Position numbers and translations under genes: made by a program. DNA of 64,000 nucleotides from Candidatus Nomurabacteria bacterium (GTDB taxonomy: Bacteria > Patescibacteriota > Minisyncoccia > Phycocordibacterales > UBA2100), in NCBI GenBank assembly GCA_943359395.1, contig CALRHH010000004.1, positions 1,699 through 65,698 on the forward strand, read 5' to 3'. The notes below the pieces were generated by a model that was not told the origin of the DNA, made no database searches, and saw only the letters and a list, made by a program, of their open reading frames with translations. This document shows, piece by piece, positions 2,863-56,235 of this stretch; the first letter of the stretch is position 1, and every line of letters begins with the position of its first letter.

Positions 2863-3918
2863 ATGTTCCACTCACTTGAGCGATACACGACAGAGAGCGT
2901 TACCTCAGGACATCCCGATAAAGTGTGTGACCAAATATCAGACGCTATTCTCGATGCGTGCCTCGCGCAGGACCCTTCGAGCCGCGTCGCTGTAGAATCT
3001 TTCGGCAGCCACGGTACGCTCATGCTCGGCGGAGAAGTAAAAACGAAGGCAAAAGTAAATTTTGAAAAAATCGCACGCAAGGTATACCGCGAAATTGGAT
3101 ACACGGATACCCTCAAGGTACTCAACACAATCGCCGTACAATCCCCCGACATCGCGATGGGAGTTGATACGGGCGGCGCGGGAGACCAAGGCATCATGTA
3201 CGGCTATGCGACGAACGAAACGAAAGAGATGCTTCCGCTCGGCGTCGTTCTCTCACATGCACTTGCCCATCGACTCGAGAAGCTCCGCCGTGACGGCACA
3301 CTGAAGTGGCTCAAACCTGACGGTAAAACACAGGTAACGATAAGCAATGGCAAGGTCATCACTGCGCTTTGCTCGACGCAGCACGACAAGAAAGTCTCAC
3401 AAGAAGAAATACGGAAGCAGCTCATCAAACACCTTTTCACTCCCGTACTCGGTTCTGTGAAAAACATCGAAATACTCGTGAATCCGACAGGACAATTTAT
3501 CATCGGTGGATTTACTGCCGATGCAGGTCTCACCGGCCGCAAGATAATGGTGGATACGTATGGCGGTGTCATGCCGCACGGAGGCGGGGCGTTCTCAGGA
3601 AAAGATTCAACAAAAGTAGACCGATCAGCCGCCTACATGTGCCGCTTCGTTGCCAAGAATCTTGTTGCAAATGGATATGCAAAGAAAGCTCTCGTCTCTG
3701 TCGCCTATGCTATCGGACGCATCGAGCCGGTCATGATTGAGGCATTTGATGAGAAAGGAAAGAACCTCACGAAGGTTGTGAACGAAAACTTCGATTTCCG
3801 TCCGCAGGCAATTATCGAACGCCTCGGCCTCCGTAAGCCAATATTCCGCGAAACAGCTGCATACGGACACTTCGGAGTAAGCGGCCGCCCGTGGGAAAAA
3901 ATAATCAAACTGAAGTAG
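2863..3918 (+). CDS. metK: S-adenosylmethionine synthetase.
   Basis: GHPDKVCDQISDAILDA, GGGAFSGKDSTKVDRSAAY, and a C-terminal ETAAYGHFG motif. Confidence 0.9.
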   Translation: MFHSLERYTTESVTSGHPDKVCDQISDAILDACLAQDPSSRVAVESFGSHGTLMLGGEVKTKAKVNFEKIARKVYREIGYTDTLKVLNTIAVQSPDIAMGVDTGGAGDQGIMYGYATNETKEMLPLGVVLSHALAHRLEKLRRDGTLKWLKPDGKTQVTISNGKVITALCSTQHDKKVSQEEIRKQLIKHLFTPVLGSVKNIEILVNPTGQFIIGGFTADAGLTGRKIMVDTYGGVMPHGGGAFSGKDSTKVDRSAAYMCRFVAKNLVANGYAKKALVSVAYAIGRIEPVMIEAFDEKGKNLTKVVNENFDFRPQAIIERLGLRKPIFRETAAYGHFGVSGRPWEKIIKLK

Positions 3919-16498: not shown

Positions 16499-17221
16499 TT
16501 ATAATTGAGGATCAATCGCGCTCCTGAAGCTTGCTATTTCAGCGGCGCCCGGGATTGAAGTTTTTCCTGTGATAAATCCGGGCGTTCCGTTGATGCCAAA
16601 TTTCCCGCCCTCAGCGCGGTCAGCATCTATGGCGCTCTGGTACTTCTCGCGATTCGCCGCAACGTTTGCCTTCACCTTCGCAGCGTCCATTCCGGAGATT
16701 CTTTTTATAAGTGCGACTATACTGGTCTCGTCACCGAACCCTCCATTCTCTTCGTCCTGAGACTTGAACATCTCCTCTCGCCACTCATAGTATTTGTCGG
16801 GATAAAGTGCCCATACAGCCCGACCATAGAGCGCCGCGGTAGTCGAATCTTCGCCCAAAAATGCGAAATCTTTGAAAATGACTCTTATCTTGCCCGTATT
16901 CACATAGTCTTTGATAAGAACGGGAAACGCTGGTTCGATTGGTATTTGTGGTATGCCGCCTATGTCGACGGCTTTACAGAATGGACATTGAAAATCAGAC
17001 CAATATGCAAGCACGACCTTCGCATTTGCGTTGCCGATATATGGCGAGCCATCGGTTTTCACGTCTTTGATATCTACGGCCACGGTTGGCTGCGTACCGC
17101 CCTGTGCTGCGGAGCCGCTCTTGGAAAGTCCATAATAAAGCCCTCCACCAATGAGGACTCCCGCAATAACAATAGCCGCTGGAAGGAAAAGAGCGGAATT
17201 GTCTTTTGGTGTTGTAGGCAT
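16499..17221 (-). CDS. DsbA-like thiol:disulfide oxidoreductase, membrane-anchored.
   Basis: N-terminal TM helix and WSDFQCPFCK (CPFC thioredoxin motif). Confidence 0.75.
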   Translation of the reverse strand: MPTTPKDNSALFLPAAIVIAGVLIGGGLYYGLSKSGSAAQGGTQPTVAVDIKDVKTDGSPYIGNANAKVVLAYWSDFQCPFCKAVDIGGIPQIPIEPAFPVLIKDYVNTGKIRVIFKDFAFLGEDSTTAALYGRAVWALYPDKYYEWREEMFKSQDEENGGFGDETSIVALIKRISGMDAAKVKANVAANREKYQSAIDADRAEGGKFGINGTPGFITGKTSIPGAAEIASFRSAIDPQL

Positions 17222-17373: not shown

Positions 17374-18888
17374 CTAGAGTCCTCCGAGCAACGCGTTCAG
17401 CTTCGCTCGTGTATTCGGACCAACGTAGCCGTATCCCGAGTCTCCTTTTTTCGCGATGCTGTATTTCACTTGGAATTTCTGTACGGCACGCGCAGTCGCC
17501 GGCCCGAAGTAGATCGTCTCACGTCCCAGAGAACCTACGCCGCTTGCCGCGACTTGCGTGCCCGCATCGGAATTGAGGATTTTCTGGAGCACCCGGACAT
17601 CTTCGCCGATTGTTCCCAAAGTAAGACCCCGTGCGAGCGGACGAGAAGAAAATTCCGACTCTACAATCGTTCCTTGCTCAGCCACCTTTTTGAGTACGTC
17701 CCAGATGGCGGGGTCCTGTCCGCCGTCGAGCTTGAATATCGAGACGCCGCGCACCCCGAGCTTCTTCGCGAGATCAATCTTCTGCTGGACCGATTGCGCA
17801 TCTGGCCAATCAAGGAGACGAAACCCGAGATGCGAATTGTACGTATCAGCGTACGCCGTGGCAGCAAGGGCAGCGAAAAGTGCCGATGTAGGACCGAGAG
17901 AGACGGGCGTGGTGCTCGTTGCAGCATTTGCAACATACGTGAAGTACATTTCCCCTGCCGTGTTACGTTGCGGTGTAATACCATACTGTGCGGCGATATC
18001 TGTCGCATACCGAGGATTGAATACCCAGAGGATACCGTACGAATATTCTTTGCCTTCATACGCCGTGACGTCATATTCGTAACCGTATGTCGGAACGCCG
18101 ATAAGTATTTTGCTTTTAGAAATATCTTTCATCATAAACCGGATGCTTTTTTCTACCCAAGCGGGGTCAGCAACCGGGGCGTAGAGTTGCGTAGAAGAAG
18201 CCGCTGTGGCCACAAGCTTGCGGTCGATGCCTTGCTGGTCGTAGGTCATAATACGTACTCTGTCACAGTACTTGTTGATTTCTTTCAGATCATTGGCGTA
18301 AACACCGGCATTCTCCGGAAGAGATGTCCCCCAATACTGATCTTCGAGCGGTGTACGAGACTCGACGGAACACATAATCATTTTGGAGCCCATGCGCATA
18401 TCCAGGCCCTTCAAAAAAGTGGAGAAGTGATCCTTGTCTTTTGCATACTTGCCCTCAAAGTCGATATCGATACCATCGTAGCCGCCCTCCTTCACAAGTG
18501 CGACGATACGGTCCTCAAGTGCAATACGTGACTTCTGATTGCTCAATAATTGGTGTAGGGTTTCTCCCCCACTCGACATAACGGTTGGAATGACACGAAC
18601 ATTTTTTGCCCTGGCAGTGGCGATAAACGAGAGCCAAGGCTCAGCCTCAAGCGCACCGTTGTCACGCAAGGTCCCGTCGTTGCGAATTGTGTAGACGAAC
18701 GGATTCACTTCTGTGAGCGTATCTAAATGGGGCAAGGTATCAGCCGTCCCCGTAGCGACGCGCCAGTATGGTATCCAGCCTGTCACTTCGAACGGTGCTT
18801 CCGTCGCGGCTGACGCCGTCAGAGGAACGGTAAAAACGAGTGCGCACAGAAAAACAAAAGAATTTCTCATACCCCGTGAGAGAAACAC
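17374..18888 (-). CDS. Secreted glycoside hydrolase family 18 (chitinase / peptidoglycan-hydrolase-like) with a C-terminal peptidoglycan-binding domain.
   Basis: GGYDGIDIDFE (DxxDxDxE) GH18 catalytic motif and a C-terminal VRVLQKILNSDAGTQV..ARAVQKFQ PG_binding_1-like repeat. The true start is more likely the ATG at 18871, which gives the signal peptide MRNSFVFLCALVFTVPLTASAA. A repeat element overlaps the region just upstream. Confidence 0.8.
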   Translation of the reverse strand: MFLSRGMRNSFVFLCALVFTVPLTASAATEAPFEVTGWIPYWRVATGTADTLPHLDTLTEVNPFVYTIRNDGTLRDNGALEAEPWLSFIATARAKNVRVIPTVMSSGGETLHQLLSNQKSRIALEDRIVALVKEGGYDGIDIDFEGKYAKDKDHFSTFLKGLDMRMGSKMIMCSVESRTPLEDQYWGTSLPENAGVYANDLKEINKYCDRVRIMTYDQQGIDRKLVATAASSTQLYAPVADPAWVEKSIRFMMKDISKSKILIGVPTYGYEYDVTAYEGKEYSYGILWVFNPRYATDIAAQYGITPQRNTAGEMYFTYVANAATSTTPVSLGPTSALFAALAATAYADTYNSHLGFRLLDWPDAQSVQQKIDLAKKLGVRGVSIFKLDGGQDPAIWDVLKKVAEQGTIVESEFSSRPLARGLTLGTIGEDVRVLQKILNSDAGTQVAASGVGSLGRETIYFGPATARAVQKFQVKYSIAKKGDSGYGYVGPNTRAKLNALLGGL

Positions 18889-18970
18889 GCCGAACGATTC
18901 AGCCGAAAACTTGGTGTATTCAACAGTATATGTGTATCAAGCATATAAATTTGATTCTCTCATGGGGTCA
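18870..18970. repeat. Inverted pair of the family-1 motif at and upstream of the GH18 start.
   Basis: ATACCCCGTGAGAGA at 18870..18884 and TCTCTCATGGGGT at 18956..18968. Confidence 0.7.
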
Positions 18971-22671: not shown

Positions 22672-22775
22672 GTATACCCCGTGAGATATGGACGATTTCA
22701 CGGCGAGGGAACCATGAACGCTCTGCAATTCAAGAAAGTCTACCAAAAGATAGCGTGTCTATCTCATGGGGTATA
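22672..22775. repeat. Inverted pair of the family-1 motif upstream of the EamA transporter start.
   Basis: GTATACCCCGTGAGATA at 22672..22688 and TATCTCATGGGGTATA at 22760..22775. Confidence 0.8.
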
Positions 22776-30673: not shown

Positions 30674-30741
30674 GTATACCCCGTGAGATAAACACTTCCA
30701 CCTTTTACTGTGGTTCGGACATTCCTATCTCACGGGGTATA
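30674..30741. repeat. Inverted pair of the family-1 motif GTATACCCCGTGAGATA with a 35-nt spacer, upstream of the AI-2E transporter start.
   Basis: GTATACCCCGTGAGATA at 30674..30690 and its exact reverse complement TATCTCACGGGGTATA at 30726..30741. Confidence 0.8.
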
Positions 30742-46281: not shown

Positions 46282-46330
46282 TGTCGACATTAGCCGACAT
46301 TCGGCCCCTTCGGGCGCCTCACGGCGGTTT
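46282..46330. repeat. Family-2 small repeat element, intergenic, downstream of gatA.
   Basis: TAGCCGACATTCGGCCCCTTCGGGCGCCTCACGGCGG. Near-identical copies lie at 54978..55025 and, inverted, at 52505..52550. Confidence 0.7.
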
Positions 46331-48600: not shown

Positions 48601-50625
<2,025 letters not shown>

Positions 50626-50631
50626 CTAGAC

Positions 50632-51291
50632 CTAGTAGTGAAGTTCCACGGAACGCTGCAATGCCCGCGCACTCGTCAATATTGACGCGCAATTCGTACT
50701 ATACCCGTCCGCACGGATAATGGTGCGTATTGAGTCTGTCGGCGCTCCCGTAACGCACACCCCGTCTGCGTTAAACGTCCCCTGACACTTTGTGACAGAT
50801 ACCTGCGCGCAGAGATTGCCGGAAATCGTAGCGTCCTCAAAAAGATCCATCTTTTGGGACGTCATCGTATACGGATAGTACGGAGGTGCCGTCGGTCGAC
50901 CTTCTGCCGCTAAGAGTTTTGTGTCACACGTTGGGTTGGGGTTATTACACGACGCATTTATCAAATCCGTCGAACTTGCAAAATAGTTGCAGCGGAAATC
51001 CCAATAGAGGGCACACTCAGCTGCGGTGTCAGCAGCATAAAACGCGAATTGCGAGTCCCGTCCGATGGCTGAAAGTAAAACCTGTTTCTGTGCGATGCCG
51101 AAAATCGCAGCACCGACCGCGAGAACAATAGACGAAACGAGCGCGGCCAGAAGCAGCGTAAAGCCTGAATTCGCCGCGCGGCGCCGCCCTAGGCGGTTTG
51201 ACTGTCGGCCTGCGGCCGATGGGAGAAGATTCACGTCGGAACGAACACGTTCCGACGAGATAAGCTGTGTCATCCGGTGTATAAATTTCAT
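50632..51291 (-). CDS. Type IV pilin-like protein (pseudopilin / minor pilin) with a long leader.
   Basis: RRRAANSG|FTLLLAALV prepilin cleavage/methylation motif preceded by a ~40-aa arginine-rich leader. Confidence 0.7.
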   Translation of the reverse strand: MKFIHRMTQLISSERVRSDVNLLPSAAGRQSNRLGRRRAANSGFTLLLAALVSSIVLAVGAAIFGIAQKQVLLSAIGRDSQFAFYAADTAAECALYWDFRCNYFASSTDLINASCNNPNPTCDTKLLAAEGRPTAPPYYPYTMTSQKMDLFEDATISGNLCAQVSVTKCQGTFNADGVCVTGAPTDSIRTIIRADGYSTNCASILTSARALQRSVELHY

Positions 51292-51292
51292 A

Positions 51293-51943
51293 CTATTGCT
51301 GTCCTACGCCGTCATCGACCCAGCGATACATATTCTCCGAAATGGTGAATGAACGCTCTTGAATAGGTCCGGTCTGCCATGTGACGGTCACCGTAACACG
51401 TATCTCGTCCATGCTCCCCGTCACCTGGTAGGCGTGTAGAGTCCGCGTGAAATATGTCGGTGTCCACGCACCCAGGTCATCGCCAAGCCCCGGATAGCCG
51501 TACAGAGTCAGGTTTGTCTGAAGTGGCGGACATGTTCCATTGCACCGAACGATGGCGGTCGACGCGTCTCCCTTGCGACCATCGATTGTAAACGGCTCAT
51601 TGAGTCGAGGAATGAGTCCGAAGATGTCCGGTGCCCCTTCAGCACTTCCCGCGATAACGAGAATTTGGGAATCTCGAATACTGCGCACAGCCTCGATTGC
51701 CTCCTGTGCAAGGTAGAAAGCCGTTATTTGGTCTCGCGCATAGTACGCAGAACCGAGACTTTTCGACGCGAGAGCCATCGGAGACACCACCGCGACAGAC
51801 AAGAGCATCACCGCGACAAGCGTCTCGATGAGAGTAAAACCAGCTTGTAGCTTGTAGCTTGTAGCTGACAGAGGCCAGAATCTTCTGAATTTTTTGCTTA
51901 CTACAAGCTGTAAGCTGTAAGCTGTAAGCTTGAATTCCATCAT
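51293..51943 (-). CDS. Type IV pilin-like protein (pseudopilin) with a long leader.
   Basis: KLQAG|FTLIETLVAV prepilin motif. The leader contains a heptamer inverted repeat. Confidence 0.7.
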   Translation of the reverse strand: MMEFKLTAYSLQLVVSKKFRRFWPLSATSYKLQAGFTLIETLVAVMLLSVAVVSPMALASKSLGSAYYARDQITAFYLAQEAIEAVRSIRDSQILVIAGSAEGAPDIFGLIPRLNEPFTIDGRKGDASTAIVRCNGTCPPLQTNLTLYGYPGLGDDLGAWTPTYFTRTLHAYQVTGSMDEIRVTVTVTWQTGPIQERSFTISENMYRWVDDGVGQQ

Positions 51944-52647
51944 AGATCAAGTACTCGTTGGACTGCCGCGGCTTGAAGATGGAAAGTCGTACGGCTGGAG
52001 GATCCCGGAGCCCCGGCGCTCCCCTTTATAACAATAACGACTTTAGGCTGTACCGTGTCGCCACGCGTCGTACCTACTACGTAAAAAAGCATTTCATCGA
52101 TAGTGACTTCGGGAGCGGTGATGGGTGCGGCACCTGAAATCGAACCGCTCGTTGACCTCTCCAGCCGGTGGGTTACGGTATTGAAATTATATATCCAGTG
52201 CGGGTCTGACGTACTGCCGAAAGACTGGAACTCGAACGTGGTACTCCCTCCCGTGCAATCATTCGGACCGCCCGTATTACCCGTGCATCCAGTTGAGCCG
52301 TCGAAATCATTGCCCATGCGGATAGAGCGCGCCATACCGTCGAGCGCGATGTTGAGGTTATTCATGACGGATTGTAGCGCCTGCGCTTTCCTATTTGCAC
52401 TCACGAGAGCGAGAAGCGCCCCGACACAAACCACCATGACGATTGAGAATAATGCAATCGCCACAACCATTTCAACGAGTGTAAATCCTGAATTCGCCGT
52501 GAGGCGCCTGACCCCGCCGTGAGGCGCCCGAAGGGGTCGCAGGTCAGCTTTGCTGGCCGGAGACGGGTCACGTCGGAATGAGAACATTCCGACGAATCTA
52601 TATTCCGACGTCAAAAATCTTGCGAGCTTGTGTTTGATCTTATCCAT
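51940..52647 (-). CDS. Type IV pilin-like protein (pseudopilin) with a long leader.
   Basis: RRLTANSG|FTLVEMVVAIALFS. The leader MDKIKHKLARFLTSE is homologous to MKFIHRMTQLISSE of the pseudopilin at 50632..51291. Confidence 0.7.
   Translation of the reverse strand: MDKIKHKLARFLTSEYRFVGMFSFRRDPSPASKADLRPLRAPHGGVRRLTANSGFTLVEMVVAIALFSIVMVVCVGALLALVSANRKAQALQSVMNNLNIALDGMARSIRMGNDFDGSTGCTGNTGGPNDCTGGSTTFEFQSFGSTSDPHWIYNFNTVTHRLERSTSGSISGAAPITAPEVTIDEMLFYVVGTTRGDTVQPKVVIVIKGSAGAPGSSSRTTFHLQAAAVQRVLDL
52505..52550. repeat. Family-2 repeat in inverted orientation plus a partial tandem copy, lying in frame inside a pseudopilin leader.
   Basis: CCGCCGTGAGGCGCCTGAC then CCCGCCGTGAGGCGCCCGAAGGGGTC. 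It encodes RPLRAPHGGVRRL of the leader of the pseudopilin at 51940..52647. Confidence 0.65.
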
Positions 52648-52648
52648 A

Positions 52649-53344
52649 CTATTGTGAAGTCTCCCTTTGTACTGATATCTGACCGTTTGCCCCGACTATC
52701 ACACTCATGACATCGCCGCGGGGGGAGAGGAGAATAATTCGAGCGCTTTCAGCGCAAATGCCAGCGCCATAGACACATCCCACTCCGTTTGCACTTATCC
52801 ACGCGTCCGCCTCGGGACGTTTAAAAACAATGTCGAGCTCTGAGGCCGGGCTCACTCCCACGCAGGTAGCGGCGTCAGCTCCCTCAGGAGCGCAGAGACC
52901 GGATATTCTGTAACCATTACGAATAGTATACGGTGACGGAGAAACGTTCTCGTCGGGTGAATCGAAGAAGCCGTCCTTGTCGACATCCGCAAAAAGTTCG
53001 TAATGCAATGGGTCGTCGATATTGAAGTGCATACCGTACCCGGAGGAAAAATTTCCCGCCCCGTATCTCTGAACAGAGATGCCGAATACCTGCGCTTGCC
53101 GGACTGAAAGCGCCACATCGTAGGCCAGATTTTCAAGTTGTACAATTCCACCAAAGCGATTGTTGTTGACCAGCACTACGGACGTCACGACGATAATAAT
53201 CCCCGTCACGACTACGAGCTCGACCAAAGTAAACCCCGTTAGAGAGGCCCTTCGGGGTGCACGAGAAACCAAACCGTTTTTCTCTAACGGGGTAAAAGCC
53301 CGAAGACGTGAGAGGTGTCTATGCCGTAGAGTGATACGAACCAT
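52649..53344 (-). CDS. Type IV pilin-like protein (pseudopilin). The start is uncertain: the ORF extends to 53557, candidate starts are the ATG at 53344 and a TTG at 53252.
   Basis: RRASLTG|FTLVELVVVTG prepilin motif. The long ORF extension overlaps pilD and is unlikely to be translated. Confidence 0.6.
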   Translation of the reverse strand: MVRITLRHRHLSRLRAFTPLEKNGLVSRAPRRASLTGFTLVELVVVTGIIIVVTSVVLVNNNRFGGIVQLENLAYDVALSVRQAQVFGISVQRYGAGNFSSGYGMHFNIDDPLHYELFADVDKDGFFDSPDENVSPSPYTIRNGYRISGLCAPEGADAATCVGVSPASELDIVFKRPEADAWISANGVGCVYGAGICAESARIILLSPRGDVMSVIVGANGQISVQRETSQ

Positions 53345-54189
53345 ATGATGATGCAACTTAGAATGAGAAACGGACCAAATGGAATCTCGCTTTTCATTGT
53401 AAACCCTCCGCGGGGCTTTCCGCGCGAAGTTATCCCAAGTGTGTACAGCGCTTCTGCAATGTGCGGCAAAGGTAGAAGTATGAGTATGGACACGATGGCA
53501 CCCACGACAAATGCTCCGAAGACGGCAAGCAAGCCGAGAGCGGGACCGAGTAACCACCCGATGCCGAGGGCAAGCTTAGCATCCCCCAATCCCATCCATC
53601 TCCCACGGGAGAACAGCCACAAAGCAAAAAGTGGTGCGGCGACAACAGGTCCCGCAAAGATGAACCACAACAATGTGTACTCGTCCGAGAACGGCTGTAA
53701 AAATTGAGAAACGAATGCGAGTCCGGCGAACGCGTACACCCACTCGTCGGGGATTATCGTGTGTAATATATCGTAAGTGGTAATACATACGAAAACGGCA
53801 AGAACGCAAAGGTGTATGAGGATGAGCGCAACTCCGGGCAATGATAGACCGAGGGATGAGGAGCCAACCCAGAAACCCAAGAGTCCGAAAAGGAGTCCTG
53901 TCGCGGCCTCGACAAGCGGATACTGAACAGAGACGCGGCCTCGACACGCCCGGCATCTTCCTCCGAGCTCCAACCACGAGAAAACGGGTATCATGTCGTA
54001 CCATCGAAGTTGCGTGCCACAGCTCATACATCCACTTCGGCCGTTGAGAGAGCGAGCCCCGTGGCGCAGAATGACGACGTTGAGAAAACTCCCGACGATA
54101 AGGCCAAGAAGTCCGAAGAGAAGTCCGAAGCTCATTGGCTCACAGTATACCCCGTGGGATAAACGCATCAGCGAGACGAAGAGAATCAT
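53284..54189 (-). CDS. pilD: Prepilin peptidase (A24 family); the true start is probably the ATG at 54135.
   Basis: CMSCGTQLRWYDMIPVFSWLELGGRCRACRG zinc motif and a polytopic peptidase domain with catalytic aspartates. The N-terminal ORF extension overlaps a repeat element. Confidence 0.85.
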   Translation of the reverse strand: MILFVSLMRLSHGVYCEPMSFGLLFGLLGLIVGSFLNVVILRHGARSLNGRSGCMSCGTQLRWYDMIPVFSWLELGGRCRACRGRVSVQYPLVEAATGLLFGLLGFWVGSSSLGLSLPGVALILIHLCVLAVFVCITTYDILHTIIPDEWVYAFAGLAFVSQFLQPFSDEYTLLWFIFAGPVVAAPLFALWLFSRGRWMGLGDAKLALGIGWLLGPALGLLAVFGAFVVGAIVSILILLPLPHIAEALYTLGITSRGKPRGGFTMKSEIPFGPFLILSCIIIWFVSLYGIDTSHVFGLLPR

Positions 54190-54251
54190 ATCCTCATGAC
54201 GAACCTGGTGCGTCTAAGATACATCCACATTTCCTATCCCATGGGGTATAC
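54145..54251. repeat. Inverted pair of the family-1 motif upstream of pilD.
   Basis: GTATACCCCGTGGGATA at 54145..54161 and TATCCCATGGGGTATAC at 54235..54251. Confidence 0.75.
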
Positions 54252-54303
54252 AAGCAAAACACCGCGTCAGACACGGTGTTTTGCTTTCCGTACAGAAGCT
54301 AGA

Positions 54304-54807
54304 CTACGGTCTTACGTCGTAGACAACACCATCGGCGGACCCGTTGAATCCTCCGTTGACTGCGGTGAAGTCAGCGTTGGTCGTCCATGTACCACCGGTA
54401 CATTGGCTGTTTAGGACCGCATCGTAGTCGATGTCCGAGCTCAAAGCACTGTGACCAACCGTCTCAAGCTTGGCGCCCAAGTGATAGCTTGTGCAATTCG
54501 TGCCGCTCCCGATCGCCTCGTAAGCGTAGCTGAGGAGACTCAAAGGGTCTCTCGGTAGTGCGGAGATGAAACCATCAGCCACCAAGTCTGTTGCATATTG
54601 CGCCGACGTTGGATATTTGCTGTTCGCATCATAATAGAGCTCAAGAGCAAGCTGAATTTGCTTGATGTCGGAAACGCGGCGTGCATCTCGGCCCTTTTTA
54701 CGTGCACTATTCAACGAGGCAAGAACTATTGAGGAAAGGATACCGATAATGGCGATGACCACGAGGAGCTCTATCAAAGTGAAACCCTTCTTATAAGATG
54801 TCTTCAT
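54304..54807 (-). CDS. Type IV major pilin (PilA-like).
   Basis: MKTSYKKG|FTLIELLVVIAIIGILSS, a canonical short leader and N-methyl-Phe site. Confidence 0.85.
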   Translation of the reverse strand: MKTSYKKGFTLIELLVVIAIIGILSSIVLASLNSARKKGRDARRVSDIKQIQLALELYYDANSKYPTSAQYATDLVADGFISALPRDPLSLLSYAYEAIGSGTNCTSYHLGAKLETVGHSALSSDIDYDAVLNSQCTGGTWTTNADFTAVNGGFNGSADGVVYDVRP

Positions 54808-54977
54808 AATATCGTAAAGTTTACTTGCTAAATTACCCTAGTAACGAGGATGACTACCATTGTATACCTATACGCCCCCCATCTAAAGGCGCCTGTGGAT
54901 AATGAATCTTCACCCTTCTAGGGTTTGTGGTTAATTTACGACGCACGAACGTACTCGTTCGTGCGTGACACTCCTCG

Positions 54978-55025
54978 TATCGGCTTTTAGCCGACACTCG
55001 GCCCCCATGGGCGCCTCACGGCGGT
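54978..55025. repeat. Family-2 small repeat element, intergenic, between pilC and the major pilin.
   Basis: TTTTAGCCGACACTCGGCCCCCATGGGCGCCTCACGGCGG. Confidence 0.7.
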
Positions 55026-55026
55026 G

Positions 55027-56235
55027 TCAAAACGCCGAAGCAATATTGTAGATTGGCAACAGTACGGACGCGAGAAGTATCGCGACGCCGAGAGCCAAAA
55101 TCACAATCATCAAAGGCTCAATGAGGCTGACGAGCGTATCCACGGCGTTGTTTACTTCGCGCCGGTAAAACCGCGCCATAGTTTCGAGTATCTTTCCCAT
55201 ATTTCCTGTCTCTTCTCCAATTTTGACCATGGCCACGACGATACCGGGAATTTCTGGATGTTTGCGCAGAGCCTCGGAAAGGGGCATGCCGCCTTTGACG
55301 TCGACGGCCGCATCGGCGAGCACTTTCTCGTAGACCGCATCCCCCACCACGAGTCCCGTGATCTCCAGGCCGCGCAATACCTGAATACCGCTGCGAAGCA
55401 TCGTCGAGAGGTTATCCGCGATGCGCGAAAGAAATATCTTGCGGTAAATATTGCCGATAGCCGGCGTTTCGAGGCGCGCGCGAGAGAGTACTTCTCTTCC
55501 CCGCGCCGTGCGCGAGAACCGATACAGAAAAATACCGCTCACCACGAGAAGTATGAGGACGAGGAAAATGTAGTGGGTAAAGAATTGCGACATCCCTATG
55601 ACCACTTTGGTATAAAGCGGCAGATCTTGCCCGACTTCCGAAAGCATTCCTGCGAGCTGCGGAATGACGAGGGTCATCATGAGGACCATGACCACGACGA
55701 ACGTAAGCATGATGAAAGCCGGATAAACCAAAGCGTTGCGAGCTTTCTGAGTAAGTTCAAAATTCCTGTCCAAATACTCGGCGAGGAAGGAAAATGTTTC
55801 GTCGAGCTTTCCGCTCTCTTCACCCGCGCGGACCATATTTACGTAAAACGAGGAAAAGATTTCCGGATGTCGCGCGAGGGCTGCGGAAATACTGCTTCCG
55901 CTTTGGAGATCGTTGCCGATTATTGTGAGCTTCTCTCCCAAAGCCGGCGTCCGTGCTTCGGCCGCGAGGAGCCTAAAGGCACGGAGAGCAGATACCTGAG
56001 CCTCAAAGAGTGTCGTTATCTGGCGGGAGAGCATCACGACGTCCGCATTCGTCACTCGGTCAAAAAGCGCGAGGCGTTTCGAGAGAAGAGACGCGCCCTC
56101 GGCCGGGTCGATGCCTGATATTACGAGTCCGCGCCGCTGTAAAGCCGCAATTGCGATATCCATGTTGACCGCATCGATAGTGCCTTGCCGCTCATTGCCT
56201 TCCGCATCGAGGGCAGTGTAGGTAAAAATAGCCAT
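55027..56235 (-). CDS. pilC: Type IV pilus assembly platform protein PilC (GspF family).
   Basis: Two T2SS_F repeats. Confidence 0.9.
   Translation of the reverse strand: MAIFTYTALDAEGNERQGTIDAVNMDIAIAALQRRGLVISGIDPAEGASLLSKRLALFDRVTNADVVMLSRQITTLFEAQVSALRAFRLLAAEARTPALGEKLTIIGNDLQSGSSISAALARHPEIFSSFYVNMVRAGEESGKLDETFSFLAEYLDRNFELTQKARNALVYPAFIMLTFVVVMVLMMTLVIPQLAGMLSEVGQDLPLYTKVVIGMSQFFTHYIFLVLILLVVSGIFLYRFSRTARGREVLSRARLETPAIGNIYRKIFLSRIADNLSTMLRSGIQVLRGLEITGLVVGDAVYEKVLADAAVDVKGGMPLSEALRKHPEIPGIVVAMVKIGEETGNMGKILETMARFYRREVNNAVDTLVSLIEPLMIVILALGVAILLASVLLPIYNIASAF

Follow-up and report, generated by a model that had tools for sequence, protein, structure and literature searches.

Likely in-frame insertion of hairpin-forming repeat DNA into the leaders of four minor pilins in a Patescibacteria type IV pilus operon

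Why are the leaders of four neighboring minor pilins so long, and why does each of them contain a palindrome? The question is raised by a type IV pilus operon of a candidate phyla radiation (CPR)/Patescibacteria genome, located on the minus strand at 50.6-57.3 kb of the 64,000-nt stretch analyzed here (contig CALRHH010000004.1 of a Candidatus Nomurabacteria bacterium; hereafter, the window). The operon encodes an MshEN/T2SSE ATPase, a receiver-domain protein, a PilT-like ATPase, PilC, the major pilin, the prepilin peptidase PilD, and four minor pilins, p1 to p4, and is followed by ligA. By the names given to homologues, the genome is placed in Candidatus Kaiserbacteria. The long leaders are likely canonical short prepilin leaders that were lengthened by in-frame insertion of hairpin-forming repeat DNA. 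Three unrelated repeat types are present: a terminal-inverted-repeat element in p1, a 96-nt multi-hairpin module in p2 and p4, and an inverted repeat of tandem heptamers in p3. Further copies of each type were found outside the leaders, in this genome or in its relatives. The genes concerned are listed below (the arrow marks the predicted cleavage site).

54304..54807, minus strand: major pilin with an 8-residue leader (MKTSYKKG↓FTLIEL), from the open reading frame (ORF) list and Pfam N_methyl/T2SSG; internal control
53284..54135, minus strand: prepilin peptidase PilD (A24), Pfam A24_N_bact and Peptidase_A24; C-terminus compared with that of the related locus L096
52649..53344, minus strand: minor pilin p1 (G↓FTLVEL); leader 53344..53234, 37 codons
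51940..52647, minus strand: minor pilin p2 (G↓FTLVEM); leader 52647..52486, 54 codons; TIGR02532 match at residues 53-73
51293..51943, minus strand: minor pilin p3 (G↓FTLIET); leader 51943..51839, 35 codons; TIGR02532 match at residues 33-53
50632..51291, minus strand: minor pilin p4 (G↓FTLLLAAL); leader 51291..51163, 43 codons; Glu5 missing

An earlier note on this DNA had called the four products pseudopilins. There are indeed four consecutive pilin-like genes at 50632-53344 on the minus strand, but their products are type IV pilus minor pilins and not pseudopilins of a type II secretion system (T2SS), because PilT is present and PilM and PilO are found in a relative. The Pfam assignments place an A24 peptidase and the assembly genes in one operon (PilD with A24_N_bact and Peptidase_A24, two T2SSE proteins, T2SSF, and the major pilin). 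In p1, p2, and p3, the sequence G↓FTL(V/I)E is followed by a hydrophobic stretch, the signature of a type IV prepilin (class III signal peptide), and the Pfam N_methyl and TIGR02532 scores exceed the cut-offs for p2 and p3. Glu5 is missing clade-wide from p4 and its orthologues (G↓FTLLLAAL; window p4 N-terminus at 51150-51165), and minor (pseudo)pilins without Glu5 are known from some other systems.

Leaders were counted from the ATG adjoining or overlapping the stop codon of the gene before. By this count, 37, 54, 35, and 43 codons precede G↓FT in p1, p2, p3, and p4, respectively, compared to 8 in the major pilin, which bears out the earlier description of a canonical 8-residue leader beside far longer ones. 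All four lie beyond the 5 to 30 residues usual for a short prepilin leader, and their net charge is positive. If any ATG, GTG, or TTG start is allowed, the shortest leaders are 13, 34, 34, and 24 codons for p1 to p4. The leaders had also been described as arginine rich; this is true of three of them, with 8 Arg each, but p3 has only 2.

Analysis of the start codons showed that the long leaders are not over-extended ORFs, as had been argued before. The starts of p2 to p4 are at the same stop/start junctions as in L105, a relative with compact leaders. In L105-L107, the junction starts for p2, p3, and p4 match those of the window (TAA..ATG, ATGA, and TAGTATG), and the leaders there have ~10-17 codons; the L105 p2 belongs to the same 90%-identity cluster as the window p2. 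Because L105 shares the junction starts and has compact leaders, the window has kept the ancestral ATG starts, and its extra DNA is located between the ATG and G↓F. This extra DNA amounts to 132, 75, and 78 nt relative to L105 for p2, p3, and p4, and the p1 insert is 63 nt; all of these are multiples of three. The p1 start and first residues (HHHMVRITLR) are conserved in L096 and L006. In the heptamer-bearing leaders of related genomes, the pilin frame is open through the array in 46 of 48 cases, compared to 20 of 48 in one of the other frames and 27 of 48 in the second, and a start codon lies upstream of the array in 45 of 48. Since the pilin frame is kept open in this way, the inserts are probably translated as part of the prepilin and then removed by PilD. 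By inspection of the sequence, the 5′ arm in p3 reads CTTACAG and not the perfect complement CTTGTAG, tandem copies of which would introduce a TAG in frame. Stop-codon avoidance was considered as a general explanation of the mismatches in heptamer hairpins; it holds for p3 of the window and fails elsewhere, e.g., in L014.

The inserted repeats, their palindromes, and the copies in the window outside the leaders are as follows.

53234..53296, minus strand: in-frame palindromic insert of 63 nt in the p1 leader; empty site in L096, L097, and L105
53233-53245 / 53281-53293: p1 palindrome, 13-bp stem ACCCCGTTAGAGA/TCTCTAACGGGGT
52486..52611, minus strand: p2 leader repeat module, with a 10-bp-stem hairpin at 52571-52594 and an extra copy of the 5′ arm at 52602-52611
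52571-52580 / 52585-52594: p2 palindrome CGTCGGAATG/CATTCCGACG, the further arm copy being that at 52602-52611
51841..51930, minus strand: p3 inverted repeat of tandem heptamers; on the coding strand, 5′ arm (CAGCTTA)×3.7 and 3′ arm (CTACAAG)×3.6
51842-51866 and 51905-51930: p3 heptamer arrays, a 24-nt inverted repeat with 83% complementarity
51163..51258, minus strand: module X, 96 nt, in the p4 leader; hairpin at 51234-51257; 94% identical to the p2 leader module of L093, another species
51234-51243 / 51248-51257: p4 palindrome CGTCGGAACG/CGTTCCGACG
54149..54247, unstranded: intergenic p1-type copy between the major pilin gene and pilD
18871-18968, 22676-22772, and 30678-30738: further intergenic p1-type copies
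55003..55030, plus strand: module X core GGCGCCTCACGGCGG in opposite orientation, intergenic between pilC and the major pilin gene
46292-46330: second intergenic copy of the GGCGCCTCACGGCGG core, downstream of gatA

Palindromes are thus present in all four leaders, as reported earlier, although the p1 start had been given as 53221, ~12 nt off. They exceed chance: the 64 kb contain 15 perfect inverted-repeat pairs of 10 bp or more (loop, 3 to 70), and 5 of these pairs, making up four elements, fall within ~0.5 kb of leader DNA. The RNAfold z scores over the whole leader were -4.2 for p3 and -2.3 for p4, with weaker values of about -1.4 for p2 and p1. The folding predictions therefore agree with the earlier suggestion that hairpins would form in the mRNA, clearly non-randomly for p3 and p4 and more weakly for p1 and p2. 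Among the related loci, excess predicted structure was confined to long leaders (n = 43, Wilcoxon P = 4e-5) and was not seen in short leaders or in major pilins, the latter showing none upstream of the cleavage site. A scan of 50000-55200 with the Rfam covariance models at E ≤ 1 gave no match, and a promoter scan showed no enrichment. Terminator-like sites were not enriched either (14 found versus 10.9 ± 3.7 expected on shuffled sequence), and none of the leader hairpins was called as a terminator on the coding strand, save a weak 5-bp site in the p1 loop.

In p1, the 63 nt are an exact insertion relative to L096, L097, and L105. The element itself is 59 nt long, with perfect 12- to 13-bp terminal inverted repeats around a 35-nt loop. 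TTTAC directly repeated flanks both ends of the insert and occurs once in the empty sites of L096, L097, and L105, which is a 4- to 5-bp target-site duplication. The arm family ACCCCGTKRGAKA has 10 matches in the window compared to 0.4 expected; these form five inverted pairs, and the other four pairs are intergenic. The insert also reaches into the preceding gene: the pilD stop codon, TAG, lies inside its left arm, and PilD is thereby 7 residues shorter than in L096. Some side observations concern this family. The 3′ end of pilD overlaps the p1 leader by ~60 nt (53284-53344) in a different frame, and the p1 start inside the overlap is conserved clade-wide. At L096:9412, where p1 is without the 63-nt element, the residue at -1 is Ala (LRA↓FTLVEL); the insert in the window recreates Gly (LTG↓FTLVEL). 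The intergenic members have the form GTATACCCCGTGAGATA ... TATCTCAYGGGGTATAC, and in the copies at 22676-22772, 30678-30738, and 54149-54247 the right arm runs into GGGGTATACT, with the ATG of the next gene 6-10 nt farther on. The GGGGTATACT sequence resembles a -10 element for leaderless or near-leaderless mRNAs, and the motif GGGTATACAAT also precedes the major pilin genes of several relatives.

The p2 and p4 leaders share module X, which carries several small hairpins. The p2 module also holds GGCGCCTCACGGCG twice (52495-52508 and 52515-52528) and a GACCCC...GGGGTC hairpin. Homology of these two leaders had been claimed before; the similarity is real from the hairpin to the cleavage site, but the first 14 residues are only weakly similar. 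Module X is 94-99% identical among the window p4 and the p2 of L093, L100, and L006, the p2 leaders of L100 and L006 being 99% and 97% identical to that of L093. The mature p2 coding DNA of L093 and L006, on the other hand, shows 44-85% identity in 48-nt windows. Copies also occur outside the leaders in relatives. L093 has a reverse-oriented intergenic copy downstream of gatA (16693-16785), 86-87% identical over ~90 nt to its own p2 leader module, and L096 has a 33-nt reverse-oriented copy of the hairpin upstream of pilD. By sequence reading, the same hairpin DNA is translated in two frames, as SERARSDV in the 54-residue p2 leader and as FVGMFSFRRD in a 44-residue variant; for instance, P0246 and P0247 have identical mature proteins, one with a leader of the 44-residue type and the other with a leader of the 54-residue type. 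Because the DNA is read in two frames, the conserved entity is the nucleotide sequence and not the peptide. A metagenome scan with the 19-nt module X core gave two true matches, both in p2 leaders of relatives, and five chance matches, and so gave no evidence that this exact sequence is widely dispersed.

The third type was found in p3, where the repeat folds as 5-bp helices parted by 2 × 2 internal loops. In the window, the two p3 arrays are the only heptamer arrays of at least 3.6 copies; the heptamer inverted repeat thus occurs once there, and relatives have multiple copies of it. A survey of heptamers in 69 loci (580 kb) of Paceibacteria and relatives showed 0.94 period-7 arrays per kb in leader regions versus 0.04 per kb elsewhere, a 24-fold difference. 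Among the control periods in these loci, periods 5-6 and 8-12 were rare or absent, and period 4 showed no leader enrichment. Of 65 species representatives, 15 have this p3-type architecture in pilin leaders, built there from different heptamers. Sharing of heptamers among the paralogues of a genome is common, as in L014 (all four), L010 (p1 and p3), L093 (p1, p3, and p4), and L096 (p2 and p3). Some of the non-leader arrays proved to be pilin leaders that the search pattern had missed. Others lie in unrelated genes, LigA and PilD, and these instances come from relatives, outside this window. In LigA, in-frame hairpin inserts were found at three inter-domain sites (L064, L058, and L042; z of -5.3 for one), and in L064 a single heptamer family supplies both the p3 leader and three LigA inserts. 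In-frame heptamer arrays also occur in a variable segment of PilD (L007, L024, L034, L057, L065, and L093); these were ruled out as hairpin inserts, as they form no hairpin (z of ~0) and barely change the protein length. The remaining non-leader arrays are intergenic hairpins of the pilus operon, e.g., between pilT and pilC in L093 (z of -3.4). A protein search with a synthetic 56-residue p3 leader was uninformative, as its only matches were short spurious ORFs in unrelated heptamer repeats of other bacteria.

Comparison of relatives showed rapid turnover of the leaders. Leader lengths vary widely among orthologues: the called leaders of p2 range from 3 to 64 residues, and a single 90%-identity p2 cluster contains leaders of 10, 23, 44, and 54 residues. 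Similarly, P0249, in the 90% cluster of the window p3, has a 10-residue leader. The palindromes are therefore not conserved in related genomes, the finding that the earlier note had named beforehand as speaking against its stem-loop proposal; proteins of the same 90% cluster have 10-residue leaders, and the p1 insert is absent from L096, L097, and L105. A good example of this turnover is L087 and L089, two members of one population with 99.7% identity on both sides of the p4 leader and unrelated 116-nt cassettes within it. Each cassette encodes a 36-residue leader with heptamer periodicity, yet folding predictions gave energies of -68 and -21 kcal/mol. The second cassette is also present in a third contig, L092, where the DNA downstream is 92% identical. 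This sharing points to recombination between co-existing lineages as the source of the cassette exchange.

Three further observations concern these junctions in relatives. First, an apparent loss of p3 and p4 in L085 and L086 was rejected as an assembly artifact. The Kaiserbacteria operon is matched at 100% up to the p3 heptamer array (L085:3752-6711, and L086), unrelated AT-rich DNA follows, and the chimeric contigs break inside the array. Second, in one Kaiserbacteria genome (L006:4640-4924), an ORF segment that resembles a GIY-YIG nuclease by eye (YIGFTHNLRKRLVEHNQG...) lies in frame directly upstream of the p3 leader, so that this junction has received an insertion of a different kind as well. 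Third, two distant relatives have a long palindromic repeat (translations IPAFAGMT and DSRLRGND) just upstream of pilin genes (L047:3250-3330 and L064:3880-3960), with the ATG of a short leader lying downstream of the repeat. Repeats with these translations are known from other environmental genomes.

The insertion account fits the length of the leaders and their Arg-rich composition, as well as the lack of conservation, the polymorphism in presence or absence, the sharing among paralogues, and the copies outside pilins. Palindromic repeats that are normally intergenic in these genomes would settle in frame in the leader-coding segment. The segment from the start codon to G↓F may be permissive, as PilD would remove it, and a stop-free in-frame insert would be tolerated there, especially in weakly expressed minor pilins. 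The inserts would be transcribed and translated with the pilin and then discarded; repeats may persist in the leader because PilD cuts it off and because minor pilin production is low. Arginine richness would result from palindromes that are GC rich and contain CGN, in addition to the positive charge that leaders usually have. RNA hairpins would then be a consequence of the inserts and not the reason for their presence. They may nevertheless lower independent initiation and thereby strengthen the translational coupling at junctions where stop and start codons overlap, and a by-product effect on the operon mRNA is possible. However, some findings weigh against insertion as the whole explanation. 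A clear target-site duplication is seen only at the p1 insert. Module X is found in pilin leaders only, apart from its more diverged intergenic copies, and its 94-99% conservation could come from selection at the nucleotide level rather than from recent transfer. The heptamer arrays cluster in the pilus operon, from pilT to ligA, with none in the other ~63 kb of the window or in the ~14 kb of L093 outside the operon. Finally, no transposase, RAYT (the transposase associated with repetitive extragenic palindromic [REP] elements), or other mobilizing enzyme was identified in the 64 kb of genome in view.

The alternative that survives best is that the hairpins are functional mRNA structures, which either block 30S binding and so enforce strict translational coupling with 1:1 stoichiometry or act as REP-like barriers to RNA decay. 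Their placement suits this idea. Every hairpin begins 1-5 codons past an ATG that adjoins the stop codon of the previous gene or overlaps with it, every hairpin finishes just before G↓F, and this same position is taken by hairpins of three unrelated sequence types. Pairing of the module X stem is kept through two-sided changes (CGTCGGAACG, CGTCGGAATG, and CATCGGAACG, each with its matching partner arm), heptamer hairpins such as that between pilT and pilC of L093 occur at other cistron junctions of the operon, and long leaders are more structured than control coding windows of the same genes. However, symmetrical changes in a palindrome can also come from hairpin-templated repair without selection on RNA. 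The hairpins are missing in about three-quarters of the related species and in some members of the same 90% clusters, and near-identical strains carry two alleles that differ by 47 kcal/mol in predicted stability. The same elements occur within LigA coding regions, as arrays in PilD, and reversed between genes, and neither the Rfam scan nor the terminator search offered any support. We therefore regard a functional RNA as rather unlikely. The conserved stem-loops for segmental stability or translation control that had been proposed for this operon are likewise not supported, given the cassette swap between alleles of -68 and -21 kcal/mol, the copies outside leaders, and the absence of an Rfam match.

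A more elaborate possibility is that the leader segment of minor pilins in Paceibacteria and their relatives is a dedicated landing site for an undescribed hairpin cassette. The cassette would consist of 3-5 tandem heptamers in inverted arrangement, folded into 5-bp helices with regularly spaced 2-nt internal loops. It would spread within the pilus operon, be exchanged as a unit between strains, and tune or switch tip-complex pilins through mRNA structure or one-unit frameshifts; these pilins are probably used by episymbionts for host attachment and DNA uptake. The clustering of arrays in the operon fits local spread, but it also fits an operon-specific role, and the proposal as a whole seems distinctly doubtful.

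Very improbable is the related idea that the heptamer arrays are contingency loci, in which slippage by one unit switches a minor pilin off or on and cassette exchange between strains adds a second layer. Slippage by one heptamer would switch the frame because 7 is not a multiple of three. A 7-nt unit in the 5′ coding region of genes for a surface structure, strongly enriched there, is what such loci would have; whole cassettes are swapped between strains with 99.7% identical flanks, and 2-3 of the 48 array-bearing leaders are out of frame or without a start codon. However, the arrays are short, with just 3-5 units, the frame is kept in 46 of 48 leaders, and slippage does not require a paired inverted-repeat architecture. 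Four sets of near-identical contigs (the window with L001-L003; seven contigs of L085-L092, from one population; L093-L095 with L099; and L096-L097) showed no indels or copy-number differences in the arrays, a comparison of consensus assemblies in which minority length variants would be missed.

Finally, leaders that are artifacts of ORF over-extension, with a non-ATG codon close to the cleavage site as the true start and with palindromes that are untranslated intercistronic elements, can hardly be the answer: there is an in-frame TTG 13 codons before F in p1 and a GTG 24 codons before F in p4, and in L064 p2 and L047 p1 the short-leader ATG does lie downstream of a palindromic repeat, but in p3 no ATG, GTG, or TTG follows codon 2 in frame, and hence none lies between its hairpin and G↓F, the nearest start in p2 still gives 34 codons, the upstream ATGs of p2 to p4 are the junction codons that give 10- to 17-residue leaders in L105, and both the open pilin frame (46 of 48 versus 20-27 of 48) and the CTTACAG arm of p3 speak for translation through the repeats.

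If insertion into leaders is correct, palindromic, selfish DNA of a compact CPR genome can find shelter in a signal peptide that is cleaved off. The disposable leader would be among the few places for such DNA, because the operons have overlapping stop/start codons and almost no intergenic space. For annotation, this means that odd long pilin leaders of CPR bacteria, up to 64 residues here, should not be trimmed. Nor should they be read as a new pilin class. In metagenome assemblies, the repeats also cause breaks or false joins. Should the leaders really be processed, A24 prepilin peptidases would be more tolerant than has been known. The heptamer cassettes and their strain-level replacement provide a marker, and possibly a mechanism, for pilus-gene micro-diversity in uncultured episymbionts.

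Two observations on neighboring genes may be added. The 5′ end of pilD was over-extended by the gene caller and in the ORF list; the likely start is MSFGLLF at 54135 and not at 54189. In the closest relative (L093:2681-5205), a diversity-generating retroelement lies inside the pilus operon, between the receiver-domain gene and pilT; it is not in the operon of the window. Its parts are bAvd, a reverse transcriptase (RVT_1), and a pair of 125-nt repeats that are 84.8% identical (3190-3314 and 3633-3757); a 212-residue gene has one of the copies at its 3′ end, the layout expected of a template/variable repeat pair.

How do these leaders compare with known systems? The searchable literature on CPR pilin leaders, heptanucleotide pilin repeats, and Patescibacteria MITEs (miniature transposable elements with inverted repeats) contained no description of such repeat-bearing leaders, and the heptamer-array inverted repeat is apparently an undescribed type of element. 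Long leaders as such are known from type IVb prepilins, e.g., ~25 residues in TcpA, compared to 5-10 residues in type IVa prepilins. The leaders described here resemble those of type IVb in having a class III signal peptide, a length well above 5-10 residues, and a G↓hydrophobic site for an A24 peptidase. However, leader length is a stable family trait in type IVb prepilins, whereas the orthologues compared here have leaders of 3 to 64 residues, and a 90% cluster spans 10 to 54. Moreover, the length here comes from repeat DNA, and the machinery looks type IVa-like (PilB, PilT, and PilC, with PilM and PilO in relatives).

Repeats in leader-coding DNA also have precedents. In Neisseria opa genes, CTCTT repeats in the region coding for the signal peptide mediate phase variation. 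Both cases have tandem repeats, with a unit that is not a multiple of three, in the leader-coding part of surface-protein genes; here, however, 3-5 units are arranged as inverted repeats, and no copy-number polymorphism was seen in the consensus contigs. The pil1 leader of Streptococcus gallolyticus is reportedly a separate small ORF with GCAGA repeats that controls a transcription terminator. This leader peptide is the subject of PMC3894217. Both cases have a translated leader that contains repeats, along with a stem-loop upstream of pilus genes. In contrast, the repeat described here is part of the prepilin itself, and a terminator signature was not found.

The elements themselves resemble REP sequences and the mosaics formed of them (BIMEs) as well as the bacterial MITEs (Correia, ERIC, BOX, and RUP), being small, non-autonomous, hairpin forming, multi-copy, mostly intergenic, and co-transcribed with operons. 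REPs are known to stabilize upstream mRNA segments. The p1 element is particularly MITE-like, with terminal inverted repeats, a 4- to 5-bp target duplication, an empty site in relatives, and dispersed copies. The difference is that the copies of interest here are inside coding sequence and that no partner transposase or RAYT was identified in the 64 kb of genome. The closest parallel is found in the Rickettsia palindromic elements (RPEs), several short palindromic families that occur in frame in unrelated genes and are translated at tolerated positions (PMC10969869). In-frame translated palindromic repeats are common to both, the hosts here being leaders, LigA loops, and PilD. However, the elements described here are 59-110 nt long compared to ~150 bp for RPEs, belong to a CPR lineage, and are concentrated in one operon. 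No element-encoded peptide is conserved, the same DNA being read in different frames; one type consists of tandem heptamers; and the copies lie mainly in a segment predicted to be removed after translation. The feature is thus likely an in-frame palindromic repeat insertion of a known kind, placed here in the cleavable prepilin leader of a CPR bacterium.

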